Shown: piece by piece, positions 12,527-38,588 of the stretch | How positions within the stretch are numbered: position 1 is the first letter of the stretch | How the letters are laid out: each line of letters starts with the position of its first letter | Source: a virus | Taxonomy: Duplodnaviria; Caudoviricetes | Virus record (IMG/VR): IMGVR_UViG_3300037198_000035 | Location: 1 to 57,671 of that record | DNA length: 57,671 nt | Reading direction: 5' to 3' (one strand) | The notes under the pieces: generated by a model | Told to the model about the DNA's origin: nothing | Databases searched by the model: none | What the model saw: only the letters and a program-made list of their open reading frames with translations | Program-made: the position numbers and the translations under genes

Positions 12527-12811
12527 ATGATTCAAAAACTGTTTGCCCATTGGAAAACAACGTCTGCCGGTTTGCTGATGATTCTCGGTTCAGTCGTTCA
12601 TCTTGTGTTTTCCGTTCGCGCCCATACCGCCGACGAAAACACATGGACAATTTCATTGACGGCCATCATTGGGGGAATCGGATTGATGTTTTCTGGCGAT
12701 GCCGCAAACTCTGAAAAGAACTCCGTTGCGATTGACAAGATCAATCTTGAAGGCCCGGATGCCTCTGCTGCGCCACTGGCAGCCACGTCAGCCGTTCCGC
12801 CAACGCCATAA
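12527..12811 (+). CDS. putative holin
   Basis: 94 aa, HWKTTSAG motif, two TM helices. Confidence 0.55.
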   Translation: MIQKLFAHWKTTSAGLLMILGSVVHLVFSVRAHTADENTWTISLTAIIGGIGLMFSGDAANSEKNSVAIDKINLEGPDASAAPLAATSAVPPTP

Positions 12812-13608: not shown

Positions 13609-13707
13609 AATCAACGTATGAGCCAAGCCACAGCCAACCAAAAACCGTCAACCGTGAAAGCGGAGGCTGGCCACCCAATGGCTGTTGGCTTCGGCGATTT
13701 GTTGGGC
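13609..13707 (-). other. attC: attC-like recombination site
   Basis: minus strand GCCCAAC-5 nt-GCCGAAGC...GCTTGGC-6 nt-GTTGATT, with one extra base in L''. Confidence 0.75.
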
Positions 13708-14379
13708 TGGCGCGACTATGACAACCAAAACCAAAGGAATAATATGATGCAGAATTTAATCCTGTTTGCTTGGCGACATGGAATAACCGCTTGCGAGAAA
13801 AAGGCGGAGGCAATCGCTTTGGAACGAAGGGGGCCGCTGGTCAACATCGGCGGTGGCGTCACATCAAGCCGCTGGCACAACATTCCAAAATGTGATGCGA
13901 AAATTGACGGGCTTGATTTTAACACCCACCGGCTTCCTTATCCTGACAACCAATACGGGGTTGTGGTCTGTGAACAGGTCATCGAGCACCTTCACAACAC
14001 GACTTGGTTTTTGTCGGAACTGTATCGCATTTTGAAACCGTGCGGAAAGTTGTTGCTGGCGACGGAGAATCTCGGCTCATTGCCAAACATCTTTGCATTG
14101 CTGCTCGGCGTTGCCCCGTTCAGCACCCAGCCGTGCTGCGGAAAGTATCGCGGCGGATGGAAGCAGGGTACCGCAGATAATCATGGCTTGGAAAAGAACC
14201 ATCCCTGCTATTCGGGAGTCACCGGCCATGTGCGCGTGATGACCACGAAACAGTTATGCGAATTGCTGGTTGAATCCGGGTTCATTGTGCAGGCTGTCCA
14301 CGGCTTTTCCTTCCGGCACTACATTTTAATCGAAGCAACCAAAGCCGCGACCGCGCAGCCCAACAAGGTCCTATCATGA
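13618..14379 (+). CDS. class I SAM-dependent methyltransferase (cassette-borne)
   Basis: VNIGGG, LPYPDNQYGVVVCEQVIEHL, ELYRILKPCG. Confidence 0.85.
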   Translation: MSQATANQKPSTVKAEAGHPMAVGFGDLLGWRDYDNQNQRNNMMQNLILFAWRHGITACEKKAEAIALERRGPLVNIGGGVTSSRWHNIPKCDAKIDGLDFNTHRLPYPDNQYGVVVCEQVIEHLHNTTWFLSELYRILKPCGKLLLATENLGSLPNIFALLLGVAPFSTQPCCGKYRGGWKQGTADNHGLEKNHPCYSGVTGHVRVMTTKQLCELLVESGFIVQAVHGFSFRHYILIEATKAATAQPNKVLS

Positions 14380-15901: not shown

Positions 15902-16294
15902 TCACTTTTTAGAAAAGAGCGCAAGCGAATACTTGGCAATGGCCAGAGGAAGGGTTTCGGCTCCACCTTCGTGAAGTGTTTCGCCTCTTTTGTTGGTTGT
16001 AAAAACAACAGCATATCCATCTCCCATGCCTTGAATAATCTGAACAGGAATGGACGATTCTTTTGCACACTTTTCCAGCACCATCATCGCGGCGGCGGCG
16101 TCGGTGGTTGGACGAAAGTATTTAATCCGGTTACTTTGTCCCTTTTCCTCGATGATAACCCCGTCAGTCGTGTGCAAGTAAAATGACGCGGCATCCAGTT
16201 GGTTTAACTTTGCGACGCGCCTCCATCCCATCACACGCCCGGCTAAATGGGCATCCAATTTTCTCATTTCTTTTTCAGTCATAATTCCTTTCAT
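15902..16294 (-). CDS. phage ABA-sandwich-domain protein
   Basis: LDAHLAGRVMGW...PTTDAAAAMMVLEK...AETLPLAIAK. Confidence 0.7.
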   Translation of the reverse strand: MKGIMTEKEMRKLDAHLAGRVMGWRRVAKLNQLDAASFYLHTTDGVIIEEKGQSNRIKYFRPTTDAAAAMMVLEKCAKESSIPVQIIQGMGDGYAVVFTTNKRGETLHEGGAETLPLAIAKYSLALFSKK

Positions 16295-18343: not shown

Positions 18344-18883
18344 TCATGTTGATATTAACTCCACATCACTTTCAACTTCGTCGCCGAAGGCGTGCCAGCC
18401 GGTTTCTCGTTTGCGGCAGAACAGTTCGATCCTCGGCACGTCGCCGAACAATTCCACGATTTTGTCTTTGATAACGATTGGTTTTTCAGAGTGTCGAGTC
18501 AGCGGTTCAAAGCACAGTTGGCTTACCGCATTGCCGACGCGCTTGGGTTTGCCGCGAGTGGCAAGCAGGCACACTTCCGAGTTGCCGCGAGTCCAGCGGC
18601 CAAGCCCGAAGAAGAAGCCCGCATCGGATTTGTTTTTCTTCACCCACAAAAAGCCGATTGATTTGTATTTGAAGCCCCACGCCTCGATGACATGCAAAGC
18701 TTCGGGAAGTAGCGGCCACGTTGCCCACATGAGCAGCACGCAGTCATTGGCGGAGATTGACGCGACGGGCAGGGCTTTGATTTGTTCGATGCTCATCGTG
18801 TTGTAGTGGCCTTCCGCGTTGCCATTGCACCCGGCGTCTTGGTAGCGCCACGGCGGGTCTGCGTAGATTACTTGGTATTTCAT
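18344..18883 (-). CDS. MT-A70-family adenine methyltransferase
   Basis: IYADPPW, LLMWATWP, WGFKYK, GRWTRGNSE, HSEKP, RIELFCR. Confidence 0.92.
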   Translation of the reverse strand: MKYQVIYADPPWRYQDAGCNGNAEGHYNTMSIEQIKALPVASISANDCVLLMWATWPLLPEALHVIEAWGFKYKSIGFLWVKKNKSDAGFFFGLGRWTRGNSEVCLLATRGKPKRVGNAVSQLCFEPLTRHSEKPIVIKDKIVELFGDVPRIELFCRKRETGWHAFGDEVESDVELIST

Positions 18884-19083
18884 ACCTGTTTGAACTTTTT
18901 AAGGAACTCCACCCTGCTCCACCGCTCTTGCACGCCGTCCTCGGCAACTACGGTTACGGTCTGCCCGTCGTCCTCAATCACAACCACGCGACCGAGTAAC
19001 TCGCCAGAATCCCACATGACGGCCAGATTGCCCTTGTTGCGGGCTTGGTCGCGGGCGAGAAGCATGGCGGCGAGGGGGGTCAT
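18880..19083 (-). CDS. hypothetical protein
   Basis: 67 aa, ATGA-coupled on both sides. Confidence 0.55.
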   Translation of the reverse strand: MTPLAAMLLARDQARNKGNLAVMWDSGELLGRVVVIEDDGQTVTVVAEDGVQERWSRVEFLKKFKQV

Positions 19084-19529
19084 GGTAAAACAAGCTGCTG
19101 TTTCCAGACGGATTTTTCACGCCACACCAAATAGAAATCCACTTCCGGCCAGAGCGTGGCGGCGACTTTAATGGTGAGGATACCCCGTGCGACGTTTTTT
19201 GCCTGCTTCGGCCCTTTCGTTTCCCAACAAACAAGCCCGCCCTCCATCCACGCCATCAGGTCCGGTTTATACCACGCTCCATTGGCCAGCCGGAAGCGGA
19301 TTGCCTGTGCGCGGAATTTAATGTCGGGATGTAATGCCTCTTGATGACGACGCCAATCAGCTTCCAGCTTGTTCGGCGGCTTCTCCCCCTGGCGTATCCT
19401 CTTGTCCTGACCAGCAACCGGCGCGGGAGTGCTGGCGAGCGGGCGGGACGAAACCTTTACCCACTCGCCAGCGGAGTTTTGGGCAAACCCTTTCGCCCGC
19501 ATGGTTGAATTGAAGTCGGCGGTCAGCAC
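19080..19529 (-). CDS. PD-(D/E)xK nuclease (DUF1064-like)
   Basis: NKLEA...YKPDL...ETKG...KVAA. Confidence 0.75.
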   Translation of the reverse strand: MLTADFNSTMRAKGFAQNSAGEWVKVSSRPLASTPAPVAGQDKRIRQGEKPPNKLEADWRRHQEALHPDIKFRAQAIRFRLANGAWYKPDLMAWMEGGLVCWETKGPKQAKNVARGILTIKVAATLWPEVDFYLVWREKSVWKQQLVLP

Positions 19530-20243
19530 TTACTCGTCCCTTTCCTTGTTCTTCGCCAGCACGTCGGCAATACCGTTTTGGAATCCCTTGGCACCGTCCG
19601 CGCCGAGATTCGCGTTGAGCCAGTCATTAAACCGCTTGCAGCCGCGCTTGACGGCATCGAACCGCTCCTTGCTGGCGGGTTGTTCGCTGTCCAGACGCTC
19701 GCCCAGGATGCGCGTGCCGATTTTGACGCGGAGCGCGGCATACCACTTTTTGCCGAACCGTCCGACAATGAGCGTGCCGTTGTCATCGTTGGCCGGTGTG
19801 AACAGTGGGATTTCCTCGCGCAGTTCAAACTTGGCTTCGGCCTCGATCAACTCGGCTTGGAAGTCGGCGGGAGTCATCACTTCCGACAGGCAGCAATTCA
19901 GGGCAAGCACTTCCTTGTCAGTTGGAATTTCGCCTTTCCAAATGTCGGCGATGAACTTCTCCAAAAAATAATACTTCTTGGAATCATTTGGGCAGAAAAC
20001 CACGACGCACTTTTCCGGTCGCATTTCAAACCCGGCATTGAGTGTCGCGGACAGGGTTTCCATGCGGCTTTCCGCTTCGGTGGTCTTGGCTTTGTAGGTT
20101 GCTTTCACGCTGTCAAATTCCGCCTCAACGGATTTGAGCGAGTCGTAAGACCGGCGAAAATCTCCGTTGAGTTGCAAGACTTCTTCGGGCGTGAACGTGT
20201 GTTTAATGGACTTGGTTTCGATTTTTGGTTTGATGGGTGTCAT
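19530..20243 (-). CDS. hypothetical protein with N-terminal coiled coil
   Basis: 237-aa ORF in the leftward operon. Confidence 0.7.
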   Translation of the reverse strand: MTPIKPKIETKSIKHTFTPEEVLQLNGDFRRSYDSLKSVEAEFDSVKATYKAKTTEAESRMETLSATLNAGFEMRPEKCVVVFCPNDSKKYYFLEKFIADIWKGEIPTDKEVLALNCCLSEVMTPADFQAELIEAEAKFELREEIPLFTPANDDNGTLIVGRFGKKWYAALRVKIGTRILGERLDSEQPASKERFDAVKRGCKRFNDWLNANLGADGAKGFQNGIADVLAKNKERDE

Positions 20244-20273
20244 GGCGTCTTTCGTGGTTTATGGTTGTTGTTT

Positions 20274-20609
20274 TTATCTCCCGCCGGCTGCCGCCCCTTG
20301 CGGAGCGACAGCGTTCTTCTGTGTCTGTGAGACGCTCAAAGCAGTCTCGTTTTGATTTAGAACAAAGAACGCGCTGGGCTGCGATAACGGCAGCCGGCGG
20401 GGGATGGGGGAAGGTTTTAGTATGGCATCAAGCGGACTTATAGACAAGTAAGATTCGATGCGTTTCTCGGTGGATAGAGATTTAGGCAGGCGCTGGGAGT
20501 GTTCGCAAAACTGGCGGACATAGAGGCAATAACTATCCTCGGTAGAAAGCGAGAAGTGCTTTAGCCTTATGAACTCGCGTACTTTTTGAACTGCCTGATC
20601 CGTTGTCAT
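20274..20609 (-). pseudogene. intI: internally deleted integron-integrase-like gene
   Basis: IntI-like N-terminal domain (VREFIRLKHFSLSTEDSYCLYVRQF...IESYLS) joined directly to the IntI C-terminal SPLD; catalytic RHRY domain absent. Confidence 0.8.
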
Positions 20610-20610
20610 A

Positions 20611-20645
20611 GATAAGTTACAAATGTTGCTTAATCATTGTTCAGC
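20611..20645 (+). other. attI: attI-like site
   Basis: immediately upstream of the intI start; ends in core GTT (20639-20641), whose downstream bases complement the first cassette's R'' flank. Confidence 0.65.
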
Positions 20646-20934
20646 GGCTTACCGTAGAGAGGTATGCTTTTGTTTCTGCCGCGAATCGTTCTTTACCGGC
20701 TGCTGGATTTGCGACCAGTCCTTTATCAATGTCGCTACACAGTGCAAAACCGGCGTCGTATCCCTTTACGAAGGCGAGTTCTATTTGTTTGCTGTCTGTC
20801 ACATATACGGTGTTTGTCTTGTATTGCGTCACAGTTGTTTCGGTGGCTGATTCTTGTTTCGAGCAGCCGCTGAACAATTCCATGCAGGCGACAGCTAGTG
20901 TTCCTGCCAGTGCGATTGATTTCAGTCTTTTCAT
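20641..20934 (-). CDS. cassette 1: putative lipoprotein
   Basis: MKRLKSIALAGTLAVACMELFSGC signal with lipobox-like Cys. Confidence 0.65.
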   Translation of the reverse strand: MKRLKSIALAGTLAVACMELFSGCSKQESATETTVTQYKTNTVYVTDSKQIELAFVKGYDAGFALCSDIDKGLVANPAAGKERFAAETKAYLSTVSR

Positions 20935-20994
20935 ATTTCGGTTTCAGTTGTGAGTCTCGGCATTACCCGCCGCGCCTGATGTCGGTCGTTCGGC
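20869..20994 (+). other. attC: attC-like site 1
   Basis: GCTGAAC-AATTC-CATGCAGG...CCTGATG-TCGGTC-GTTCGGC. Confidence 0.85.
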
Positions 20995-21251
20995 TTTTTC
21001 ATTTGTGGTCGCACCGGAAGTGATTCCTGATATTTGCGTGCCCTTTCATTTCCTGATTTGCAGTCAATTTTATGCCCCGGCCACACCGCAGCACACTCTT
21101 TGCACTTCCCGTTTTTATGGCGGTTTTCATCCGTTGCCCAAGCCGAACAAGGCGTTGCAGATAATTCGCTTTTCCGCTTTCGCCTCATGGCGTCTTGACA
21201 CAAGATGCAGTCCTCGTCGTAGAGGATATGACTTTTACAATGGTCGCTCAT
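20931..21251 (-). CDS. cassette 2: Cys/His-rich hypothetical protein
   Basis: 106 aa with CILC and CKEC...H..C; starts in attC2 and ends in attC1. Confidence 0.6.
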   Translation of the reverse strand: MSDHCKSHILYDEDCILCQDAMRRKRKSELSATPCSAWATDENRHKNGKCKECAAVWPGHKIDCKSGNERARKYQESLPVRPQMKKPNDRHQARRVMPRLTTETEI

Positions 21252-21272
21252 ATCTGAACTTTCTCGTTAGGT
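21142..21272 (+). other. attC: attC-like site 2
   Basis: GCCGAAC-AAGGC-GTTGCAGA...TCTGAAC-TTTCTC-GTTAGGT. Confidence 0.85.
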
Positions 21273-21273
21273 G

Positions 21274-21522
21274 CTAATTGATTTCTCGGCATTCAATGCT
21301 CGGTTTTTCACATTTTTTGCCTGCGAATGGGCAGTCTATCCGCTCCATCTTGGTTAGGAACTTTCCCACGTCTTTCTCGCTTGGATGGCGCAGTTCTGTT
21401 GTGAAGTTGCCGAGCTTCGTTCCACATTCGGCGCATCGGTATTCCGTTCCCTCTAGCGCGTCATTTATTTCTTGGATGACTTTCATATTCGTGAGTTCGC
21501 ACCTAACAACGCGCTGCTGCAC
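21274..21522 (-). CDS. cassette 3: small zinc-finger-like protein
   Basis: CAECG...HP...CP; start may instead be MKVIQ at 21486. Confidence 0.55.
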   Translation of the reverse strand: MQQRVVRCELTNMKVIQEINDALEGTEYRCAECGTKLGNFTTELRHPSEKDVGKFLTKMERIDCPFAGKKCEKPSIECREIN

Positions 21523-21627
21523 AACGAGTGGTGTCCCTTCCAGTTGGCGGCATCGCGTTAATTTTACGGTTTGGTTGCATTGGTTACTCCCTGCCCACCA
21601 CTCGTGGCAGAGCTTGATTCGTTAGCC
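21501..21627 (+). other. attC: attC-like site 3
   Basis: ACCTAAC-AACGC-GCTGCTGCACAACGAGTGGTG...CACCACTCGTGGCAGAGC-TTGATTC-GTTAGCC. Confidence 0.88.
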
Positions 21628-21848
21628 GTCTCTGCGAGTAAGATGCGGGCTTTTGATGCCTCGCGCCCCAAATCACTTACTGCGACTTCTCGTGTTCCGA
21701 CTAGCGCTTGGGCGTCGTAGCGATGAGCACACACGTAGTCAGCCCTGTTCGTGAGGTTTTGGAGTTGTTCACGCAGACGGCTAACAACGCGCTTCACCGC
21801 GACGTCGGATAGCCCCTTCAGTTTGGTTGTTTTTTTGGCAGTACTCAT
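21564..21848 (-). CDS. cassette 4: hypothetical protein
   Basis: 94 aa; starts in attC4 and ends in attC3. Confidence 0.6.
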   Translation of the reverse strand: MSTAKKTTKLKGLSDVAVKRVVSRLREQLQNLTNRADYVCAHRYDAQALVGTREVAVSDLGREASKARILLAETANESSSATSGGQGVTNATKP

Positions 21849-21905
21849 ATTCCAGTTTTCCTTTCTCCACCCGCCACCGGCGCGGGTGAGCTTGATTCGT
21901 TCGGC
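21779..21905 (+). other. attC: attC-like site 4
   Basis: GGCTAAC-AACGC-GCTTCACC...GGTGAGC-TTGATTC-GTTCGGC. Confidence 0.85.
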
Positions 21906-21965
21906 TTCATGAACACGATCCAGTGCGTCTTAGCCGTTTTGCCGCACCGTTGTCCTACCAGCTTC
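21899..21965 (-). pseudogene. truncated fifth cassette: C-terminal remnant of a phage SAM-dependent methyltransferase
   Basis: minus strand reads LVGQRCGKTAKTHWIVFMKPN, resembling the G.RSGK..KTHW..FMK terminus; no upstream body or attC. Confidence 0.5.
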
Positions 21966-22194
21966 GCTGTTGAACGAATAGCTCGGTATGCTAGCGAATT
22001 GTATCTAGTGCTTTGCGGATGGTCGCAAAGGAAGGGATATCGCCGGAATGCGGTTTTATCTTCAGGCGCTTACAAACGACGTCTTTAGTTAGGGATTCCC
22101 GACTAGACTTTGGCTGCATCGCTACGTGGGTTTTGCTTGATTTTGGTGTGGGCATGCAATGTTCTCCTTTTAGAATAGTCGATGTTGCTCATTT

Positions 22195-22656
22195 TCAAAA
22201 AGGCACGTCATCGGATTCGCCTTCGCTTGGCAATGGGGCGGGCTTCGTCGCTGGAATTGTCACCGGCGCAGGCGGCAAGTAATCGTCCACTTCATTTTTA
22301 TCGCCGTATTTCGGATCGTGGGTAATTTTCAACCGCACAAATCCAGTTCGGCCCGCCCAAGAATTTGAAGCCGGGTCAACCACGCCAGATTCGTATTCCT
22401 TTGCCTTTCTCGTCGTCTCACAGAAATGCTTCAACTTCCACTCACTGAACCAGTCCGCGAAATAATCATAAACGTGACGATCAAAGTCCGGGCCATGCAC
22501 ATTCAATTTCAGCGCACACATTTCCTTACCGGCGTTCTTTGCCGACTTGCTGGTTTTGATATCGCTCTCCAAAACTGTGAACGGATAGTCACCGTCCGGC
22601 AGATTTGAAAAACGCGATATTTCGGATTCGTCTTTTGGTGTAAATTTTAGTGCCAT
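22195..22656 (-). CDS. ssb: single-stranded DNA-binding protein (DUF669-like)
   Basis: LPDGDYPFTV..., acidic DDVPF tail, adjacent to an AAA_24 gene. Confidence 0.75.
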   Translation of the reverse strand: MALKFTPKDESEISRFSNLPDGDYPFTVLESDIKTSKSAKNAGKEMCALKLNVHGPDFDRHVYDYFADWFSEWKLKHFCETTRKAKEYESGVVDPASNSWAGRTGFVRLKITHDPKYGDKNEVDDYLPPAPVTIPATKPAPLPSEGESDDVPF

Positions 22657-22665
22657 AATTTTGTT

Positions 22666-23565
22666 TTATTGAAGTTTTTTCTTAAGCCAGATAATTGTCG
22701 CCGCCGCCTGTTCAGTCGAAAGCTCCTTCCAGGATTCAACCCCGGCCCTCGTCCAAACTTTTTCGATTTCCTGTTCCGTGGTTTTGACTACCGAAAGCAA
22801 TTTTTCGATTTCCTTGATCTGCTCCGGTGTTGCAAACGTGATTTGATGCGTGGCGGATTCGATGTAATCCTTGCCGTAACGCTTCGCAAATTCGTCGTAT
22901 TCGAGCGGGAACTGCTCAAGGTCGGGGAAGCCGAGCAACCGCGATTTCTTTACGATGGCAATTCTCGCCGGGCCGCGCTTGACAGCTTGGAGCGTCAGGT
23001 GAAGCTCAAAAATGAGTTTGTCCCAAACGTCGGGTATGCGACCAATTTCCGTGCGCTGGCCGCTTTTGGCGTCCAAACCCCATTCAGCAGTGTCGTGCGC
23101 GACAAACCAGATATTCATATCCAGTTTCATCGCCCAGTTGACCAGCCGCCGCATTCCGGCAATGGCCGGCTTCTTAGACGCGCCAAAGGCGTCTTTCTCG
23201 CCCAGGCGTTCCGCCTCGTTCGCAATGGCGGTCTGGTAAAGCTTCGTGATGCTGTCCACGATGAGCGTTTTGTAAGGATGCTTTTCGGCGGCGAGCGCCT
23301 GCATCTGCTCGATCAAGAAATTGAAATTAAGTGCGCCGTCTTTCGGGCCAATGTAGGCGCCCCCACTTCGCTTGAGCCGGTCTTGGTAATGTTGCAAATC
23401 CGCCCCACCCTCTGTGTCAATGTAATACGGCGCTGGAAATGTCAGAGTGAACCATGTCTTTCCGACGCCGGACGCACCGAAAATCATTCCTTTGGTTTTA
23501 CCTGGAAGAACATCTTCCGGTGATTTTGCTTTTAATTTTGTGACTGTTGTGTTTTGTGGTGGCAT
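22666..23565 (-). CDS. AAA_24 / Sak4-like recombination ATPase
   Basis: Walker A GASGVGKT, IDTEGG, TLIVDSIT, FVAH. Confidence 0.85.
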   Translation of the reverse strand: MPPQNTTVTKLKAKSPEDVLPGKTKGMIFGASGVGKTWFTLTFPAPYYIDTEGGADLQHYQDRLKRSGGAYIGPKDGALNFNFLIEQMQALAAEKHPYKTLIVDSITKLYQTAIANEAERLGEKDAFGASKKPAIAGMRRLVNWAMKLDMNIWFVAHDTAEWGLDAKSGQRTEIGRIPDVWDKLIFELHLTLQAVKRGPARIAIVKKSRLLGFPDLEQFPLEYDEFAKRYGKDYIESATHQITFATPEQIKEIEKLLSVVKTTEQEIEKVWTRAGVESWKELSTEQAAATIIWLKKKLQ

Positions 23566-23585
23566 GGTTTTATTTTGGTTGATGG

Positions 23586-23735
23586 TTATTCGATGAAAAA
23601 TGCGATGGTGAAAAAGTAGAGGGCGACGGCCAGAAAAAGGAAGCCGACGATTTCGGAGAAAGCTGCCCGCCCCATTTCTGAGGCGGGTTTGCTCGCTTTG
23701 TGGTTAGGCAGCGAGTGCCTGTTGGCTTTCGTCAT
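23586..23735 (-). CDS. small membrane protein
   Basis: C-terminal TM helix; start uncertain. Confidence 0.4.
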   Translation of the reverse strand: MTKANRHSLPNHKASKPASEMGRAAFSEIVGFLFLAVALYFFTIAFFIE

Positions 23736-23797
23736 TTTGTTTTTCAACAAACAGCTAACTTCAGACCCAGCCAAAATTCTACGCTGCAAAATAGTTG

Positions 23798-24013
23798 TCA
23801 TGCGATCCTCTCAACCTCAAACAGCCGTTCGTTAAGTGCGGCACCTTTGGTTTCTGGGGTGACCAGCGCACGGATAACGATGCCGATGTCTTTGGCGGCG
23901 TTGTAGAACACCCGGCGCATTCGCAGGTCGCAGGGCCGCTTGAGTGACTGGCGTGGTTTGAGGACGGTGAGCAGCTTTCGCGCTCGGATAAGGTCTTCAC
24001 TGGGTGTTCTCAT
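23798..24013 (-). CDS. hypothetical basic protein
   Basis: probable start MRTPSEDL; divergent from the replication genes. Confidence 0.45.
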   Translation of the reverse strand: MRTPSEDLIRARKLLTVLKPRQSLKRPCDLRMRRVFYNAAKDIGIVIRALVTPETKGAALNERLFEVERIA

Positions 24014-24352
24014 TGGCCGAACACTCTCACAGGCTTGGCGACGAGTCAACAATCATTTCAAAATAAATTACGATTACAGATTTGTTAATGACTGAGCCTT
24101 GGACATGCTAATTGTCCAACCAACCGTTTATTGTCCTGCGATTGGCAAAAAGTGTGTGTTGACGGAATCTTGGACTTTTGCGAGGGTTGGGTGTTCGCAG
24201 GAACCGGCGGCGTGACACCCGACCGTAAGCGCAGAAACATGACAATCGAAAATTCAACTCCGTTGCTGGCGTTCTCGACGCCCTCCAAAGTGCCGCAAGG
24301 CTGCTGCGAAGTGTCACCGTCCCCGCCGGCAACGGAACTGAGATTTTGAATT

Positions 24353-25180
24353 ATGCCGCTCTACCAAATTAAAGACTGGGACGCCTTTTTTGAGAACGAC
24401 CGCAGCCGCAACCGTATCCAGTGCTCGTTTGTGTGCGTTCCAAACAAGCAGCATGGTATGGGCTTTTGCCGTATCATGGCCGAGGTGGACGGGGCGGCGA
24501 TCTACGGCATTTGGCATTGCATTGTGGGCGCCTGTTCCCAGCAGCGCAAACGCAACGGCTGGCTCACACCAGACGGTGACAAGGCGGTGAGTGGATGGGG
24601 AGTCGAGGACCTGGCTTTGAAGTTCCGCCGGCCTGAATCCGAAATCGCCCGCGCATTGGAAGTGCTTTGTTCTGAAAAGGTTGGGTGGATTATTGACCAC
24701 GAAAACACCGCAAGTCACCGCCAAGTCACCGCCAAGTCACCGCCTACTCACGTAGAAGGAAGGAAGGAAGGAATAGAAGGAAAGAAGGAAGTGAATGGTC
24801 GCTTCACTCCCCCCGCGCTCGAAACGGTGAAGCTTCAAGCCGCCAAAATCGGACTCAGCGACCTCGAAGCGGAGAAGTTTTTCAACCACTACACCGCTAA
24901 CGGTTGGAAGGTTGGGAAAAACCCAATGCGGTCATGGACTCACGCGCTTTCAAACTGGAAGCTCAACGCTCAAAATTATGGAAACGGAAAAATCAACAGC
25001 ACGAACAGCCGCCCAAATCCTCGAAACGTCGGAATCATTCGCGGGCCTACGGACTACGCCACCGCCAAGCCGCGCCGCCAAGTCGAACTCGAAGCCGAAC
25101 GCGCTCGCCTGGCAAGCCAAGTGGCTGCCGATGAAAATAACCCACCCACAACTCAATCAGGCGCGGGCGTCACTGTTTAA
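24353..25180 (+). CDS. phage replication initiator protein
   Basis: N-terminal YQIKDWDAFFE domain, iteron-containing linker, C-terminal FTPP...EKFFNHYTANGWKVGKNPMRSW domain; upstream of a DnaC-like gene. Confidence 0.8.
   Translation: MPLYQIKDWDAFFENDRSRNRIQCSFVCVPNKQHGMGFCRIMAEVDGAAIYGIWHCIVGACSQQRKRNGWLTPDGDKAVSGWGVEDLALKFRRPESEIARALEVLCSEKVGWIIDHENTASHRQVTAKSPPTHVEGRKEGIEGKKEVNGRFTPPALETVKLQAAKIGLSDLEAEKFFNHYTANGWKVGKNPMRSWTHALSNWKLNAQNYGNGKINSTNSRPNPRNVGIIRGPTDYATAKPRRQVELEAERARLASQVAADENNPPTTQSGAGVTV
24711..24790 (+). repeat. iterons and purine tract (putative replication origin)
   Basis: three tandem CAAGTCACCGC (24711-24743) followed by (GAAG)n. Confidence 0.75.
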
Positions 25181-25733
25181 TTTCTGCGCAGCTTATTCAA
25201 AACAGCCAAGCTGCGGCAGGACCGTCATTCTCTACGGCGAGAACGGGAGCGGAAAAACCCGCCTGATAAAACAAGTCTGCCGTTGGGCGTCACTCACCGC
25301 GCAATTCATGCCGATGGTGAACCGGCCCGACCTTGGAGATCAAACCGGGCTGGCTTACTCGCTTTTTTATCACTGGCCATCCGTGGTGGATGAGTTCCAA
25401 AAACGGCAGGACATCGGAGCGGTTGACGAGTTGATGGATTGCAGTCTGGCTGTGGTTGATGACATTGGAGCAGAGCACGACCCAAGCGGATTTGGACGCG
25501 AGCAGCTTTACCTTCTGCTGTCTCGCCGGGAATATAAATGGAACCTGTTCACGACAAACTTTGCGCCCGCCGAATGGGACAATAAATTTGAGCGTCGGAT
25601 TGCCTCTCGACTGTTTCGCAACGCGGAGCACATTGACCTTTCGATGGTGCCTGATTTCTCGACGGTCAATTTAAAACCGCTCATTCAGTCGCCAGAGTTG
25701 GCGAAGAAGTTCCGGGAGGCGGCAAAAGTTTAA
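24978..25733 (+). CDS. DnaC/IstB-like AAA+ helicase loader
   Basis: GENGSGKT, VVDDIGAE, FTTN, RIASRL; start uncertain (24978 or 25131). Confidence 0.85.
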   Translation: METEKSTARTAAQILETSESFAGLRTTPPPSRAAKSNSKPNALAWQAKWLPMKITHPQLNQARASLFNFCAAYSKQPSCGRTVILYGENGSGKTRLIKQVCRWASLTAQFMPMVNRPDLGDQTGLAYSLFYHWPSVVDEFQKRQDIGAVDELMDCSLAVVDDIGAEHDPSGFGREQLYLLLSRREYKWNLFTTNFAPAEWDNKFERRIASRLFRNAEHIDLSMVPDFSTVNLKPLIQSPELAKKFREAAKV

Positions 25734-25850
25734 CGAAAAAGCTCAGACGCGCTCGCGGTGAGCTTGGCAAAAAGAGAAAGGTAAATATGACAAAACGACA
25801 ATCGAAAACTGGAAGGCGTACCCCGCGTCGTCTGAAGCGCGTTGTTAGCC
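25728..25850 (-). other. attC: attC-like site
   Basis: minus strand GGCTAAC-AACGC-GCTTCAGACGACGCG...CGCGTCTGAGC-TTTTTC-GTTAAAC. Confidence 0.82.
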
Positions 25851-26044
25851 GTCGTAAGCGCGCGCTCGCAACCTTCTATATTCCGCCGGATGACGGGACA
25901 AACTTCGTGATACCAGGGCCACCTGACGAAGCGGGGCTGGACATGGCAAGCGACCACATGGGCATTCCGGCGGTTCAAATAAAAGTGCGCCGAAAATATG
26001 TGACGGAAGCGTTTCTAAAAAACCTGCCCGAATACGACGGCTAA
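25787..26044 (+). CDS. solo-cassette hypothetical protein
   Basis: 85 aa; starts within the attC loop; stop lies in the core site GGCTAAC. Confidence 0.65.
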   Translation: MTKRQSKTGRRTPRRLKRVVSRRKRALATFYIPPDDGTNFVIPGPPDEAGLDMASDHMGIPAVQIKVRRKYVTEAFLKNLPEYDG

Positions 26045-27216: not shown

Positions 27217-28017
27217 TTAGCTGTTGTGGTCTTGAGCCTCTTGTTTGGTGATGAAAAAGTGGATGCCGTTTGAGCATTCTAATAGCGGGTTAGGGTCGTA
27301 TTTGTCCGGCTTGACGGTTTCGCCCACTTTGTAAACATGCCCGTTGTGCAAACCTTTCCCTTCACCCCCAAGTACAATGGCGAATTCGGCTCGGCACTTG
27401 CGACCAATTAACCCGCCAACTCGTTTTGCTTTAGCCGGGATTTGCAGTTTGCATAGCACGCCGTTTTGCAACTTTTTCCAGCCGATTAAATCACCTTCCG
27501 GCAGGATGGTTCTTTGATTCAACAATTTTTTCAGGTCTGCGCCTGACAGGTTTGCGCCTGACAGGTATGCGCCTGACAGGTCTGCGCCTGACAGGTATGC
27601 GCCTGACAGGTATGCGCCTGACAGGTCTGCGCTTGACAGGTTTGCGCGTGACAGGTTTGCGCGTGACAGGTCTGCGCTTGACAGGTATGCGCCTGACAGG
27701 TTTGCGCTTGACAGGTATGCGCCTGACAGGTTTGCGCCTGACAGGTTTGCGCGTGACAGGTTTGCGCCTGACAGGTTTGCGCCTGACAGGTATGCGCCTG
27801 ACAGGTCTGCGCCTGACAGGTTTGCGCGTGACAGGTTTGCGCCTGACAGGTCTGCGCCTGACAGGTCTGCGCCTGACAGGTTGGCACCGCGCAGGTCGGC
27901 ATCGCGCAGGTTGGCATGGATGGCAAGCGCGGCAATTATAGCATCGCCGATGCTTTCCGCGTCGGTTTCAAAAATAACTGTTTCTCTATTCCAGCGGGAT
28001 ACAATTTTTATTTTCAT
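27217..28017 (-). CDS. pentapeptide-repeat protein with C-terminal DUF5758-like domain
   Basis: about 25 A(D/N/Y)LS(G/R/S) repeats; C-terminal GWKK...KCRAEFA...ECSNGIHFFITKQEA. Confidence 0.9.
   Translation of the reverse strand: MKIKIVSRWNRETVIFETDAESIGDAIIAALAIHANLRDADLRGANLSGADLSGADLSGANLSRANLSGADLSGAYLSGANLSGANLSRANLSGANLSGAYLSSANLSGAYLSSADLSRANLSRANLSSADLSGAYLSGAYLSGADLSGAYLSGANLSGADLKKLLNQRTILPEGDLIGWKKLQNGVLCKLQIPAKAKRVGGLIGRKCRAEFAIVLGGEGKGLHNGHVYKVGETVKPDKYDPNPLLECSNGIHFFITKQEAQDHNS
27532..27915. repeat. 15-bp coding tandem repeat
   Basis: (CAGGTHTGCGCBTGA)n encoding the pentapeptides. Confidence 0.95.
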
Positions 28018-28057
28018 AATTTTATTTGAGTTGCCGCCAGTTAAGGCGGCGATTGGG

Positions 28058-28471
28058 TTAGTTCTGCATCTTCCTTTCCTCGTCAACCAGATCGTGCAAC
28101 TGCAAATCTTCAAGATCGGCAACGAACATAATGCCAAATTGCTTTGTCTTGATGAAACAGCCGTGCCGGTGCGTTGAGTGGTCGGGCAGGCAGAACAGGC
28201 CCCAAAGCCCGCTTGAGGACGTGTAAGCGGTTTGCGTGTAGCCGAGACGCTTGGCGGCGCGTTCGCAAAACTCAATTTCCTTTTCGCTCATTTCGACTTG
28301 GTTAATATCCGGCGCTCCCCCGGTCGGAATTGTGGCGCGTTTTATGGCGGAGCAAACTAGCCCGGCATATAACCCGCCGACTGTTCCGTCCTGCTTGTCG
28401 GCCCGCTCTTTGTAGCGTAGAAAATTGGCCGCGTCTTCACTGTCTGCAAACTGTATTTTCACTGTTTTCAT
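28058..28471 (-). CDS. hypothetical early protein
   Basis: 137-aa ORF with A-rich upstream region. Confidence 0.6.
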   Translation of the reverse strand: MKTVKIQFADSEDAANFLRYKERADKQDGTVGGLYAGLVCSAIKRATIPTGGAPDINQVEMSEKEIEFCERAAKRLGYTQTAYTSSSGLWGLFCLPDHSTHRHGCFIKTKQFGIMFVADLEDLQLHDLVDEERKMQN

Positions 28472-32187: not shown

Positions 32188-32565
32188 ATGAACATTCTTC
32201 AACTCTGGCGCGATTTCCTGTCATTCCGGTCAACGATGAAGGAATGGCTCGGTGAAGGCGGTCGTCCGGTGGATGCTTCCGTGGCGGCTGCGCGTGCGCT
32301 GCAATGCCGCCACTGCGTCTTTAACCAGCATGGGGCCGGTTACACTCAATTCACCGCCGGGGTGCTAAAAAGGCATCTGGAAGCGAAAATGAAAGCCCGG
32401 TTGAGCGTGTTGAAAGAGGCGGAATTGCACACCTGCCAGCTTTGCCGATGCCCGCTCGTTCTAAAAATCCACGTTCCGTTCACCCATATTCGGGCGTATC
32501 AGCGTGAGGACGTGCGGCAGGAGATAATGAAGGGCAAGCCAGATTGCTGGCAACTTACTCAATGA
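32188..32565 (+). CDS. Cys-rich (zinc-binding) hypothetical protein
   Basis: RALQCRHCVFN...CQLCRCPL...CW. Confidence 0.7.
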   Translation: MNILQLWRDFLSFRSTMKEWLGEGGRPVDASVAAARALQCRHCVFNQHGAGYTQFTAGVLKRHLEAKMKARLSVLKEAELHTCQLCRCPLVLKIHVPFTHIRAYQREDVRQEIMKGKPDCWQLTQ

Positions 32566-33844
32566 TGTCTGCCGGGTCGGGGATGGTCTGGTCGGTCATC
32601 TCAACCCCGACTTCTTTGGCGGCTTGAAGTTCTTTCATCAGGTCTGCTAGTGACGAAAACTCGACGTGGACGCCTTCCGGCATCTGGTCAACGACTTCTC
32701 GGAGATGGTCAACCGCTTCTTCGATGGTGTCGCCAATGCCCACACACCAGCCGATTTCAGAGACGCCTTGCGGGTCGGGCGGAACGCAGATTTTTCCATT
32801 AGACCTGCATGAGAATGAGATTTTAACAAATGGGTCAATTTCTTCCGGGATGTCGAACACGCCCCAATGGTCGCGGTCAACCTTGAAAATTGCCTGTGCG
32901 CCGAATTTGGCTGTTTGCTCCGGCTCAACCAGAATTCCATTTGCGCCCTGCCAGATGATTTCTCCCAAGTTGCCGATCATCTCGCACATACACTGGCTTG
33001 GAGGCGAAGGCATACGGCACGTAGGATCAATGAAATAACTTTCCCCCTCTTTTGTGATTCTGACTTCGGTGCAAAACATGCCACGGTAGCCGTATGATTC
33101 AAGAATGGGGGAAAACGATTCGTTGACGCAGCGGACTTCTTCGGGGCAATCAGCGAACTTTTGGAACGCCCCGATGTAACTCTGGTCTTTTTTTTCAAGA
33201 CCATGAATGATTGTTTCCGGCCACTGTCCATCAATGCAGTAGGTGTCAATTCCATCCTCGATTTCGGTGTCAATCGGGGCGAACACCCAAAACACCAGAT
33301 TTTCCTTGAGCGGCCCCAACTTCGCGGCCATCTCATCAATGATGTTTTCATCCTCTGCCATGCTGTGGAAGTGGAACGTCTCAAAGTCGCCCCGGTAGGT
33401 GTCCACCTTGATGTATTGGTCAGGGTTATCTTGCAGGAACAGGCGAAGGTTGGTGATACCCTTGACTTTCTCAGCCTTTGGGACGGGAAGATTGGTCTTG
33501 TTTTTTAGGACATCAAGGAACTTGCCGCGTCGGGCCTCAAGTTCATCACCATTACGGCAACCCCATACCGGGATACCGCGTTCAATGAATTGTTTTTGCA
33601 GGTCGGAATATCCTATATCGGGAAACACGGCTAAATCAATTTCGCTTGCAACTGATTCGACGGATTCAACCCGGATAATTTCACTGTATCCGTCTCCGAT
33701 AATGTCGTCTCGAAAGTGGGGAAAGGCATTTTCCCATGGCGACCAGTAATAGACGGTTTTGAATTCGCGGGCGAGTCGTCGGGCGACGTGAACAAACAGC
33801 CCGGCGTCCGCAACCAAACAGATGATGTCTTTTGCCGATTTCAT
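32555..33844 (-). CDS. ATP-grasp ligase (PurD/GARS-like fold)
   Basis: IPVWG...LE.RR, YIKVD, GYRGMFCTEVRI...YFIDPTCRMPSP. Confidence 0.75.
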   Translation of the reverse strand: MKSAKDIICLVADAGLFVHVARRLAREFKTVYYWSPWENAFPHFRDDIIGDGYSEIIRVESVESVASEIDLAVFPDIGYSDLQKQFIERGIPVWGCRNGDELEARRGKFLDVLKNKTNLPVPKAEKVKGITNLRLFLQDNPDQYIKVDTYRGDFETFHFHSMAEDENIIDEMAAKLGPLKENLVFWVFAPIDTEIEDGIDTYCIDGQWPETIIHGLEKKDQSYIGAFQKFADCPEEVRCVNESFSPILESYGYRGMFCTEVRITKEGESYFIDPTCRMPSPPSQCMCEMIGNLGEIIWQGANGILVEPEQTAKFGAQAIFKVDRDHWGVFDIPEEIDPFVKISFSCRSNGKICVPPDPQGVSEIGWCVGIGDTIEEAVDHLREVVDQMPEGVHVEFSSLADLMKELQAAKEVGVEMTDQTIPDPADIIE

Positions 33845-36821: not shown

Positions 36822-38588
36822 TTAATGTTTTAAGAGTCCCGCATTTATTGCAGCGTCCCACTCTTTTACCTCTTTGTCAAAGTAATCCTCGTCAGGTTTG
36901 CTGGATTGAACCTCGCGCCCGATTCGCTCAATCCTGAAACCGAGTCGGCGAGCGCCCTCAAGGGCGATTGCAAAATAATCGTAAAGGTCGGGACTTTTCT
37001 TTACCCGCTCCTTCATGTCGTCCTTAGATTCGACCTCGACCTTATTTCCGGCCACGATTCTGAAAAGCCGCAACTGGCCCTCTTGTGCAACTGGCATGGA
37101 AAGATTTCTGACCTGATTAGATTCAATGGCCTCGCGTGTGGAAAACCACATCTCTGTAACAAATTTCGAGTAATGTTCCTTGCATGTTTTTAGGCGTCTC
37201 TCGCCATTTTTTTCATCAATGAACAAATCAAATCTGACGGGCCTCTCGGTGGTCGGCGCGCCGGAATCAACTGGTATTGGGCAGGTGCTTCCAAACTTCT
37301 TGGCGAATGAATTGCCAAGCGTTCCCCGGCCAAATGAATCGTAAAAGAAATTCTCAGGCGGGATGTTGAGTCGTTTGTGTTGGTTAAAAATAAACTCAGC
37401 AATCTGATCTTCTGGCTCAATGCCGCAATTTAGTCGGATAGGAATTATTTCAGGAGTTCCAACGGCAAAGATGATATTGCCGTCCTTGTCCTCTCCAAAT
37501 TCGCACTCACCGCCAACGCAGCGGTCGCCTCCACCAAATGCTGGATCACAGGAGAAAAGTTTCGTCCGAGCCGTCCCTTTCCAAGCGGCGGATTCAAATG
37601 CGTGATGCTTCTCACACAGGCCAATGGTGATGACTCGGTTTGAAACCATGCCGCGAGACGGCTTCCCAATGGCTTGCTGGAAATACTGCCACGAATCAAG
37701 CCCATGAGTTGAAGCCATCAAGTCAATGAACTTTTGGGTTATGAGATAGGGGTAACGATTCTTCGGCTCATCGTTGTTTGGCGTATCGCGCCCGTCAAAC
37801 GCAACGACATGGGCATCATACCAGCGCGAAGTCCATTCTTGAGTCTTGCCGGTGTCAATGAACGAATCCCAACCGCCCCTTGGTTCGGCGGCAGTGCAGA
37901 GCGGGTCTGAAATGTCGGTCGGATTTCCGCCCATGACTCCCTTGAAACCGTCGTTCACCATCCAATTTGCGTAGGCGTCCAGAAAGGAGGATTCCATTAC
38001 AGCCGCCTCGTCGCCGTAATGAACCATTATGCCGTCGTTTTTCCCCGGAGAATTTGGTGGCTTTGAACCTTGAAACTTTCCCATTCCGACAAATCTGCCA
38101 TTGGACACACAGGCAACCGTTCCGATTCCGTGGTCAAGGGTGCGGGCGACTTCATTTTCGTCGTCAATGTCGTCCGGGGTGATTTGACGCTTTGAGTCGA
38201 GGACAAATCCTTCGAGCCAAGAAAATCTTTCCCGGCCACGGTTGAACATCTTTTTCAACCGTCCCCAGACCTTTCGTTCCAGAGAAATGATGTCTGTTGT
38301 GGAAAGGATGCCAAGAGAAGTTTGGGGAAAAACCCAAAAGTTAATCAGTGCGTGAACGGTGAAAAGGTAGGTCTTGTTAGTGGATGCCGCGCCCAGAAAC
38401 ACCGTGACTTTGTTTTCACAAATCCGGGTCAATCCCAAGACAAACCAGCGGTGCTGGTCGTCCTCTGGCCAAATCAATTTGTGTGCGGCAAGATAATGTT
38501 TAACCACTCCCGGCTTTCCATACCCTCGCCGGATGGCGTCAAATTCTCTCGCCAGCGCGAATTCTTCCGCCGAGTATTGGTCTGACAC
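36822..38588 (-). CDS. terL: terminase large subunit
   Basis: Walker A GAASTNKT, Walker B HYGDEAA, coupling motif GGNP, nuclease CDPAFGGGD and KSPDLYD. Confidence 0.9.
   Translation of the reverse strand: MSDQYSAEEFALAREFDAIRRGYGKPGVVKHYLAAHKLIWPEDDQHRWFVLGLTRICENKVTVFLGAASTNKTYLFTVHALINFWVFPQTSLGILSTTDIISLERKVWGRLKKMFNRGRERFSWLEGFVLDSKRQITPDDIDDENEVARTLDHGIGTVACVSNGRFVGMGKFQGSKPPNSPGKNDGIMVHYGDEAAVMESSFLDAYANWMVNDGFKGVMGGNPTDISDPLCTAAEPRGGWDSFIDTGKTQEWTSRWYDAHVVAFDGRDTPNNDEPKNRYPYLITQKFIDLMASTHGLDSWQYFQQAIGKPSRGMVSNRVITIGLCEKHHAFESAAWKGTARTKLFSCDPAFGGGDRCVGGECEFGEDKDGNIIFAVGTPEIIPIRLNCGIEPEDQIAEFIFNQHKRLNIPPENFFYDSFGRGTLGNSFAKKFGSTCPIPVDSGAPTTERPVRFDLFIDEKNGERRLKTCKEHYSKFVTEMWFSTREAIESNQVRNLSMPVAQEGQLRLFRIVAGNKVEVESKDDMKERVKKSPDLYDYFAIALEGARRLGFRIERIGREVQSSKPDEDYFDKEVKEWDAAINAGLLKH

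Follow-up and report, generated by a model that had tools for sequence, protein, structure and literature searches.

A probable integron module with flipped cassette genes in the early operon of a peat-soil phage

Integrons are viewed as bacterial devices, and their logic needs cassettes which face away from the integrase gene (intI) and are placed under the Pc promoter. What, then, is the array in region 20274–21905 of a peat-soil phage genome, in which four cassettes of 278–355 bp adjoin an IntI-like gene remnant and the four open reading frames (ORFs) all read towards it? The window studied here is the whole IMG/VR virus record IMGVR_UViG_3300037198_000035 (57,671 bp; 100% complete and 'linear' according to CheckV), and the array is surrounded by a leftward block of early genes. 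An earlier note, made by a model from the letters of the window, had proposed that the phage lineage uses, or used, an integron for shuffling its accessory genes. We consider it highly probable that the region is a true integron module which lies within the phage's leftward early operon; the module would now be inactive because its integron integrase appears to have lost ~250 internal codons.

The four array sites (attC1–attC4; coordinates of all features are given in Table 1) are 125–131 bp long. In each of them an R'' box ending in AAC is followed by a 5-nt spacer, the L'' box, a spacer of 6–7 nt and a GTT core, and L'' is one base longer than L' (the extra base is G, G, G and T, respectively). 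The R''/R' and L''/L' inverted repeats, the extra L'' base and the unequal spacers that characterise attC sites are therefore all present. When five sites of the window were folded jointly with RNAalifold, the consensus showed an R box of 5 bp, separated by 5 nt from an L box in which one base bulges out (column 16), with compensatory double changes in 12 of the 20 pairs; the attC anatomy which the earlier note had described for the four sites is borne out both by the sequence and by this consensus. Canonical sites have G or T as the extra L'' base on the bottom strand. In the window it is the top strand that has G or T, but the identity of this base was abandoned as a criterion, since any of C, T, G and A can stand at this position in bacterial sites of Verrucomicrobiota.

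The start of each cassette is complementary to the flank of its own R'' box. All four inverted repeats of this kind given in the earlier note were recovered (I3: 14 nt, 100%; I24: 9 nt, 100%; I13: 12 nt, 92%; I14: 11 nt, 100%). Past the GTT/AAC, the complement to the own start extends over 6, 6 and 8 nt in cassettes 2–4, vs 0–2 nt for the adjacent R'. The same is seen in the other viral loci described below: among the matches listed, the own-start complement has a mean of 5.13 nt (at least 6 nt in 71 of 118), and the adjacent-R' complement a mean of 1.48 nt (at least 6 nt in 6 of 207). This footprint would be expected if cassettes excise as circles, and no other proposal explains it.

The folding of the sites bears on a different explanation, namely that they are stem-loops between phage genes, such as terminators or regulatory hairpins carrying ribosome-binding sites, which resemble attC and do not belong to an integron. 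We regard this as very unlikely. The central ~80 nt of the sites are mostly unpaired and coding, as would suit such hairpins; the sites folded singly, as they stand in the array, are no better than shuffles (ten strands, z +0.24 to −2.19); and an Rfam gathering search of the whole window, which is uninformative for attC, matched no family. The weak single-site folds, however, arise because R' in the array belongs to the next cassette. In the excised-circle form all six bottom strands pair 8–11 of the 11 R-box positions in the minimum free energy structure (z −2.3 to −5.4), whereas in the array form they pair 0–5 positions (z −0.9 to −2.8); the canonical fold depends on joining each site to the start of its own cassette. 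As regards the bottom-strand folding named in the earlier note, the canonical form is thus seen for the excised circle and not for the single sites. Intergenic hairpins would also not account for the own-start complement, for the IntI remnant and conserved attI which adjoin the sites, for the intact IntI beside such arrays in relatives, or for the behaviour of the site model in bona fide intI-adjacent arrays, where it finds sites on the correct strand only.

This covariance model was built from five sites of the window, and the window was scanned with filters off. The training sites score 79–112 bits, the untrained attC6 scores 40.5 bits and the next best match 9.9 bits. On 100 other loci the model gave 45 matches (E ≤ 0.1), the strand being the same for all. 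The 38 of these which fall in bacterial or metagenomic loci fetched via the IntI protein all lie upstream of intI and on the opposite strand (e.g. 11 in L070), the only strand and position expected for attC. Such specificity beside bacterial intI genes indicates that the model recognises true attC sites and their polarity, and that the sites of the window are of attC type. The opposite orientation of the sites, which would make the ORFs 'canonical', was considered and rejected: it is the AAC side that holds the 5-nt spacer and the extra base, the body of the single cassettes precedes the stem-loop on the called top strand, attI is at the intI end of the array, and the model matches bacterial arrays on the canonical strand only.

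Concerning attI, a conserved block is found at the 5' end of intI, 25–35 nt upstream of its start; in the direction of intI it reads ...YRAAC/AA(G)TGATTAGGCRAC.... The block is shared with L068, L133, L106, L116, L170 and L201/L136, and is weaker in L160, L121 and L206. In most loci of this IntI clade an ORF reading towards intI ends in a TAAC or TGAAC core. Judged by its sequence, with the block at the intI 5' end and the cassette junction at the AAC/GTT core, the site is an attI, as had been proposed from the window by itself.

The IntI-like nature of the adjoining gene is confirmed by its Pfam SAM-like domain and by its first ~56 residues, which are 75–86% identical to five proteins of 313–330 aa (P0002–P0006). 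The best NCBIfam family of these proteins is TIGR02249, integron integrase (216–239 bits), Xer models reaching merely ~71–96 bits, and their alignment contains the IntI-specific extra domain. Across the full-length IntI of the window clade (P0002–P0006, L068, L133, L106, L170) TIGR02249 gives 206–275 bits vs ~71–119 bits for Xer, whose cut-offs are ~330; the proteins group with IntI and not with XerC or XerD. The TIGR02249 cut-off of 265 is passed by the viral IntI of L133 (265.3), L106 (266.6), L170 (274.9) and L188 (321.9). The remnant in the window reaches 20–22 bits on IntI models, and the functional integrase of a complete integron is absent.

The gene is incomplete, as the earlier note had implied, but it is not simply truncated: residues 1–57 are joined in frame to 'SPLDA', the C-terminal end of IntI, by an internal deletion of ~250 codons. 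After 'SPLDA' the ORF runs into the former 3' flank, and its tail is collinear with the region past the intI stop of L206, a 44 kb viral contig. In L206 the remnant (4183–4443) keeps intI residues 1–53 and the last ~33, i.e. it has another deletion and the same flank. A stretch of ~165 nt is 75% identical to the region past the L206 remnant, which marks it as conserved backbone; an 18-nt inverted repeat (20276–20405; 94% complementary, arms 94 nt apart) is found in this former intI 3' flank. The 5' part of intI (53–57 codons) has thus been retained in two phages despite differing internal deletions; coupled translation, a DNA-binding peptide or an overlap of this part with attI or its control are possible reasons. 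Among the contigs compared, L068 has the closest intact intI (69% identity). There, an ORF resembling a DNA methyltransferase, of which the C-terminal end is present (1–160), precedes intI, reads towards it and stops 9 nt ahead of the core.

All six cassette ORFs of the window are on the bottom strand of attC and run with the local phage operon, and the top-strand ORFs under Pc of a complete integron are not found in the array. For the array, this direction had already been noted, and it is upheld by the ORF list and by a codon-usage log-odds score trained on ORFs of at least 250 aa outside arrays. Based on this score, the bottom strand codes in 16 of 16 bodies from the window, L003 and L206. 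In the other viral loci 128 of the 131 bodies among the matches listed are called bottom, two are ambiguous and one is top; the 17 bodies of bacterial and metagenomic intI loci comprise 12 top, three ambiguous and two bottom. Ten cassettes have long ORFs on both strands, and Pfam matches are seen for five of the ten bottom ORFs (N6_N4_Mtase twice, MethyltransfD12, PAPS_reduct and HNH) vs none of the ten top ORFs. A Shine–Dalgarno motif followed by ATG is present on the bottom strand of 62 of 239 listed viral attC sites and on the top strand of seven (shuffles: 17.6), and on the bottom strand of one of 34 bacterial sites. The 128 listed viral bottom ORFs start inside their own attC (56), in the body (52) or beyond the attC (20); the last group is probably over-extended. 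The longest-ORF rule for choosing the coding strand was dropped, since it called 'top' 9 of 16 known bottom cases. A sigma-70 consensus scan, which is weak evidence, gave no promoter-like site in the array and a sole upstream one on its coding strand, at 24060–24088.

Looking at each array cassette separately, c1 encodes a signal peptide and a lipobox, the latter within R'', and its TGA stop overlaps the core; the codon-usage call covers cassettes 2–4 only, because c1 has no attC upstream. The Cys-rich c2 starts within attC2 and ends in an ATGA overlap with the start of c1; the score is +6.1 for the bottom strand vs −6.2 for the top. The ATG of c3, a small CxxC protein, is at 21486, 13 nt from R'' (+14.0 vs −19.8), and c4 starts within attC4 and extends 59 nt into attC3 (+10.6 vs −6.2).

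Two more cassettes lie outside the span first noted, in which the four array cassettes stand as placed. Cassette 5 was found by a self-match of the window and cassette 6 by the covariance model. Both show the own-start/R'' complement, and their ORFs are antisense to attC and co-directional with the neighbouring phage genes. Cassette 5 follows directly after the stop codon of a DnaC-like gene; c5 starts within attC5, and its TAA stop is formed by the core. The product of c6 is an S-adenosylmethionine-dependent methyltransferase (Pfam Methyltransf_11, 38.7 bits vs a cut-off of 21.2), the true start of which is likely an ATG ~40 nt beyond R''. With four plus-strand attC sites within 1.1 kb beside an internally deleted intI, the array corresponds to clustered attC sites without an integron integrase (CALIN: at least two attC that share a strand and lie within 4 kb, functional intI being absent), and cassettes 5 and 6, which have one attC each and are distant from attI and intI, correspond to single attC sites lacking an integron integrase (SALINs).

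The R/L-box pattern of the window's own attC sites was used to fetch at least 114 stretches from viral contigs, the viral status of most of which is taken from IMG/VR alone. Model matches are found in 63 of the first 80 loci (152 sites) and in 25 of the remaining 34 (86 sites); arrays contain up to 14 sites among the matches listed, and just two of the 63 loci have matches on both strands. Full-length IntI-like proteins are present in at least 12 loci (12 of the 114, among those listed; tblastn), and at least eight viral contigs of the window clade have a full-length IntI beside arrays. In L133, L106, L170 and L188 intI is part of one-directional gene strings near a DnaB-like helicase, primase, helicase or polymerase-exonuclease; in L133 a DnaB-like helicase (phrog_19, E 4e-98) follows intI, and in L188 a primase and a helicase are near it. 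In these four loci, in L206 and in the window, intI is opposite to the attC strand.

Relatives of the window carry different cassettes, with breakpoints at the GTT cores, as the earlier note had anticipated. In L206 the intI remnant is on one strand and nine attC sites are on the other; the cassettes differ from those of the window, and the array lies between phage genes (e.g. a RusA-like protein and an exonuclease). L003 (54.7 kb) contains seven attC sites, no intI and other cassettes, next to a protein 75% identical to that of the window; the own-start complement is clear in four of its seven sites, and a fifth has a mutated core. Both attC2, together with the first 40 residues of c2, and attC6 recur in L003 with different bodies. 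Also, attC3 is 96% identical to sites in L108, L129, L111 and L118, each with another body. Other metagenomic contigs with attC2 and attC3 diverge exactly at the R'' and R' borders.

In an IntI tree of 80 rows (a quick method with a midpoint root only; 18 of 93 loci were omitted as partial), eight IntI from viral contigs and six window-like proteins form a 14-row clade (SH-aLRT 91). Its sister, with a support of 100, comprises 31 IntI from Opitutaceae/Opitutales metagenome-assembled genomes (MAGs) and peat metagenomes; the window clade itself holds no MAG IntI. In a metagenome scan one close IntI was found, on a 2 kb contig. These relationships bear on the possibility that a piece of a host chromosomal integron was taken up by illegitimate recombination and is decaying in the phage, without a phage-specific system, the antisense ORFs being a trait of that host's integron or the result of selection after capture. 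We find this doubtful. An apparently dead integrase, an array invariant across the runs compared, chromosomal Opitutaceae in the sister clade, attC sequences resembling those of Verrucomicrobiota and the origin of published complete phage integrons in host arrays (main text of PMC9892861) would all fit such a capture. However, top-strand coding prevails in the chromosomal arrays found in the sister clade and other Verrucomicrobiota (12 bodies top and two bottom of 17, e.g. L070), whereas bottom-strand coding is seen in all six cassettes of the window and in 128 of the 131 other viral bodies listed. The window clade consists of viral-contig IntI (eight) with zero from MAGs, intact IntI genes are placed within phage replication operons, and L206 combines the same intI 3' flank with another deletion and nine other cassettes.

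An assembly chimera of a phage and a bacterial integron sharing repeats could also produce such a locus, since short-read contigs break at attC repeats and the same samples hold contigs with attC2 or attC3 in other contexts; we consider this extremely unlikely. At least 96% of the sampled words of 19900–22300 are found in 20 public runs, which belong to 14 peat and permafrost studies (2018–2025). Single contigs join the array to both flanks: one contig in run X3 spans 18784–25474, and contigs in run X12 span 20379–21625 and 21596–25713. The exact 111-aa remnant is recorded from 16 contigs, the longest of 59401 bp.

Two variant joins were observed in these runs. In run X20 attC3 is joined at its end to a 45-nt piece (16064–16108, inside ORF 15902–16294(−); 'goes back 5562'); the piece recurs on short contigs, and the join hints at another arrangement or another phage in the sample. 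In run X19, where the phage has a contig depth of ~2,500–3,000x, one contig (depth ~290 vs ~2,900) matches attC2 at its end and attC3 at its start but skips the body of cassette 3 (21275–21498); it could be a variant array with another cassette.

Besides the single-site folds and the Rfam search, several results weigh against reading the locus as an integron module of the phage. The window phage's own IntI is, as predicted from its sequence, dead and could supply no integrase activity. The array, identical in the four runs compared and almost fully present in 20, gives no sign that shuffling continues in this phage; the run comparison is one of assembled contigs, silent on excised circles and rare rearrangements. 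The viral loci were picked by the pattern of the window's attC sites and thus represent one attC family, not a census. Phage-type flanks are known from four intI contigs (L133, L106, L170 and L188), and just three of the eight window-clade contigs (L133, L106 and L170) were flank-checked, the IntI of L188 belonging to another clade. The proteins P0002–P0006 and that of L068, at 206–239 bits, are under the TIGR02249 cut-off. The codon-usage classifier is correct on just 72–74% of 80-codon test chunks, and at least one of the 131 'bodies' (L201 8009–10345) holds intI itself and is not a cassette. No homologues were found for c2 and c4, each of which reads 59 nt over a cassette border. In the relatives searched there is no empty insertion site for cassettes 5 and 6, and the close relatives L217–L220 keep the last 64 nt of cassette 6 without attC6.

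In L217–L220 (~3884–4000; 87–91% nt identity to window 14301–14364) a terminator-like hairpin is followed by the end of cassette 6, with no methyltransferase. These relatives do not share the array region, and their state looks like the loss of the cassette through a secondary deletion and not through IntI excision.

Taking these points together with the anatomy, footprints, coding strand and cassette variation described above, we maintain the integron reading and propose the following mechanism. The four array cassettes would have been inserted one by one at the attI G/TT, and cassettes 5 and 6 singly at GTT sites elsewhere in the genome. The polarity of the platform is classical (intI divergent from the attC top strand), so that cassettes inserted by IntI at attI would take the usual orientation. 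The gene inside each cassette is flipped, which turns the array, attI and intI into one co-directional stretch of the phage operon. Because the array is read in the direction of the surrounding phage genes, expression would be by operon read-through and not from a Pc promoter. Translation would start from attC-borne sites, inside the attC loop or just past R'', with some translational coupling (e.g. the ATGA overlap of c2 and c1), and stops would often be supplied by the core (TAA-C or TGA-AC).

The array of the window phage looks frozen at present; any recombination would rely on IntI acting in trans, from the host or a co-infecting phage. Of the proposal that the lineage 'uses, or used' an integron, 'used' thus suits the window phage, with its apparently dead IntI and invariant array, and 'uses' suits it less. 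For the lineage as a whole, the swapping of small accessory genes via IntI-mediated recombination is suggested, because relatives keep an intact IntI of the same clade and the same layout with different cassettes. The exchanged genes would include DNA methyltransferases and PAPS-reductase-like, HNH-like and small zinc-ribbon proteins, with a presumed benefit to the phage.

Going one step further, we lean towards the view that peat and soil phages, probably phages of Verrucomicrobiota, have an integron class of their own, with an IntI clade sister to that of chromosomal Opitutaceae. Such a class would be built into the early or replication operon, with a flipped cassette pool transcribed towards intI, the attC loop acting as translation-initiation region, and a trade of genes between phages which includes anti-defence genes and single insertions at GTT sites anywhere in the genome. 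Transcription would then leave the recombinogenic bottom strand as the non-template strand. If this is true, integron recombination is a mechanism of phage genome mosaicism and accessory-gene exchange, the arrays are a natural experiment on what fixes cassette orientation, and they offer a new set of small portable phage genes, many probably counter-defence. Integron pipelines which annotate cassette coding sequences on the attC strand would mis-call such genes.

Table 1. Positions of the integron-related features and of the neighbouring early genes in the window (57,671 bp).
Feature	Position	Strand	Details
intI remnant ORF	20274–20609	−	111 aa; Pfam Phage_int_SAM_4 (PF13495), residues 8–56 only
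IntI N-terminal SAM-like domain	20439–20609	−	remnant residues 1–57
'SPLDA', IntI C-terminal end	20421–20435	−	remnant residues 59–63
attI (predicted)	20610–20645	+	conserved block ending ...TAATCATT, then G/TT, G at 20639; joins cassette 1
Cassette 1	20640–20988	+	349 bp; ORF c1 20641–20934(−), 97 aa
attC1	20865–20994	+	model 101 bits
Cassette 2	20989–21266	+	278 bp; ORF c2 20931–21251(−), 106 aa, Cys-rich
attC2	21140–21272	+	model 78.7 bits
Cassette 3	21267–21621	+	355 bp; ORF c3 21274–21522(−), small CxxC protein
attC3	21499–21627	+	model 91.8 bits
Cassette 4	21622–21899	+	278 bp; ORF c4 21564–21848(−), 94 aa
attC4	21775–21905	+	model 100.9 bits
Single cassette 5	25734–26044	top strand = minus	311 bp; ORF c5 25787–26044(+), 85 aa
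attC5	25728–25850	−	model 111.6 bits
Single cassette 6	13615–14363	top strand = minus	749 bp; ORF c6 13618–14379(+), 253 aa
attC6	13609–13707	−	model 40.5 bits, E 1.4e-8; outside training set
MT-A70-type DNA methyltransferase	18344–18883		leftward early block
DUF669/SSB-like protein	22195–22656		leftward early block
Sak4-like annealing protein	22666–23565		leftward early block
DnaC-like loader	24912–25733	+	first gene of rightward block

The remaining genome was surveyed for its phage genes. The structural genes are thinly supported, by weak PHROG matches to tail and virion proteins; three large proteins of the structural region were without match in a PDB sequence search and have few matches in PHROGs and Pfam. 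A terminase is suggested for 36822–38588 by Atlas look-alikes, as a lead only. The position of 32555–33844(−) (429 aa) hints at a capsid protein, which its product does not seem to be: the Atlas look-alikes are viral ATP-grasp or 'biotin carboxylase family' clusters (rated as very close), again a lead only. The product of ORF 27217–28275(−), which also occurs in L006 and L184, combines pentapeptide repeats (Pfam, 213 bits) with DUF5758 at its C-terminus (64 bits). A tRNA-His (GTG) gene is located at 12722–12811(−), on the strand opposite to the neighbouring ORFs.

Concerning known systems, reports to date describe integrons in phages as uncommon and for the most part as fragments captured from hosts. 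In the main text of Qi, Rajabal, Ghaly, Tetu and Gillings (2023, Front Microbiol; PMC9892861), 10,705 NCBI phage genomes gave three complete integrons, one In0 and 17 CALINs, i.e. integron parts in 21 of 10,705 genomes; the complete integrons are pieces of host arrays or class 1 mosaics, and the attC sites are active with IntI1. The view of the earlier note that integrons are typically bacterial therefore holds in general, although phage-borne parts had already been published. The window is like these phages in having intI, attI/attC and cassettes within a phage genome, and methyltransferase cassettes (including Methyltransf_11) and, in virulent phages, intI-less attC clusters are also described there. 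[quoted passage not shown] A literature search, with the supplement of PMC9892861 outside its scope, did not show pools of antisense cassettes, an IntI clade of viruses or phage integrons embedded in operons to have been reported; within these sources, phage-borne integron parts are known, and systematic cassette inversion with operon embedding was not found in print.

The chromosomal integrons of Opitutaceae and other Verrucomicrobiota (L009–L013, L016, L019, L023, L030 and L070), whose IntI form the sister clade, share with the window the attC anatomy, similar R''/L'' boxes and an intI divergent from the attC top strand. Unlike the window, their cassette ORFs are on the top strand, away from intI, and the Shine–Dalgarno–ATG motif on the bottom strand is confined to one of 34 sites. 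In the inverted integron-integrase of the Treponema type, as described by Cury et al. (2016, PMC4889954), intI runs in the direction of the cassette genes, as in the window; there, however, intI is on the attC strand, whereas in the window intI is opposite and the ORFs are flipped instead, so that the window does not belong to this type. SALINs, as described by Loot et al. (10.1101/2022.09.11.507474), are single cassettes at GWT/GTT sites, inserted via attC × attG and expressed from a resident promoter, a description which suits cassettes 5 and 6. The setting there is the bacterial chromosome, whereas in the window the target is a phage genome, and the ORFs are antisense to attC and co-directional with the operon.

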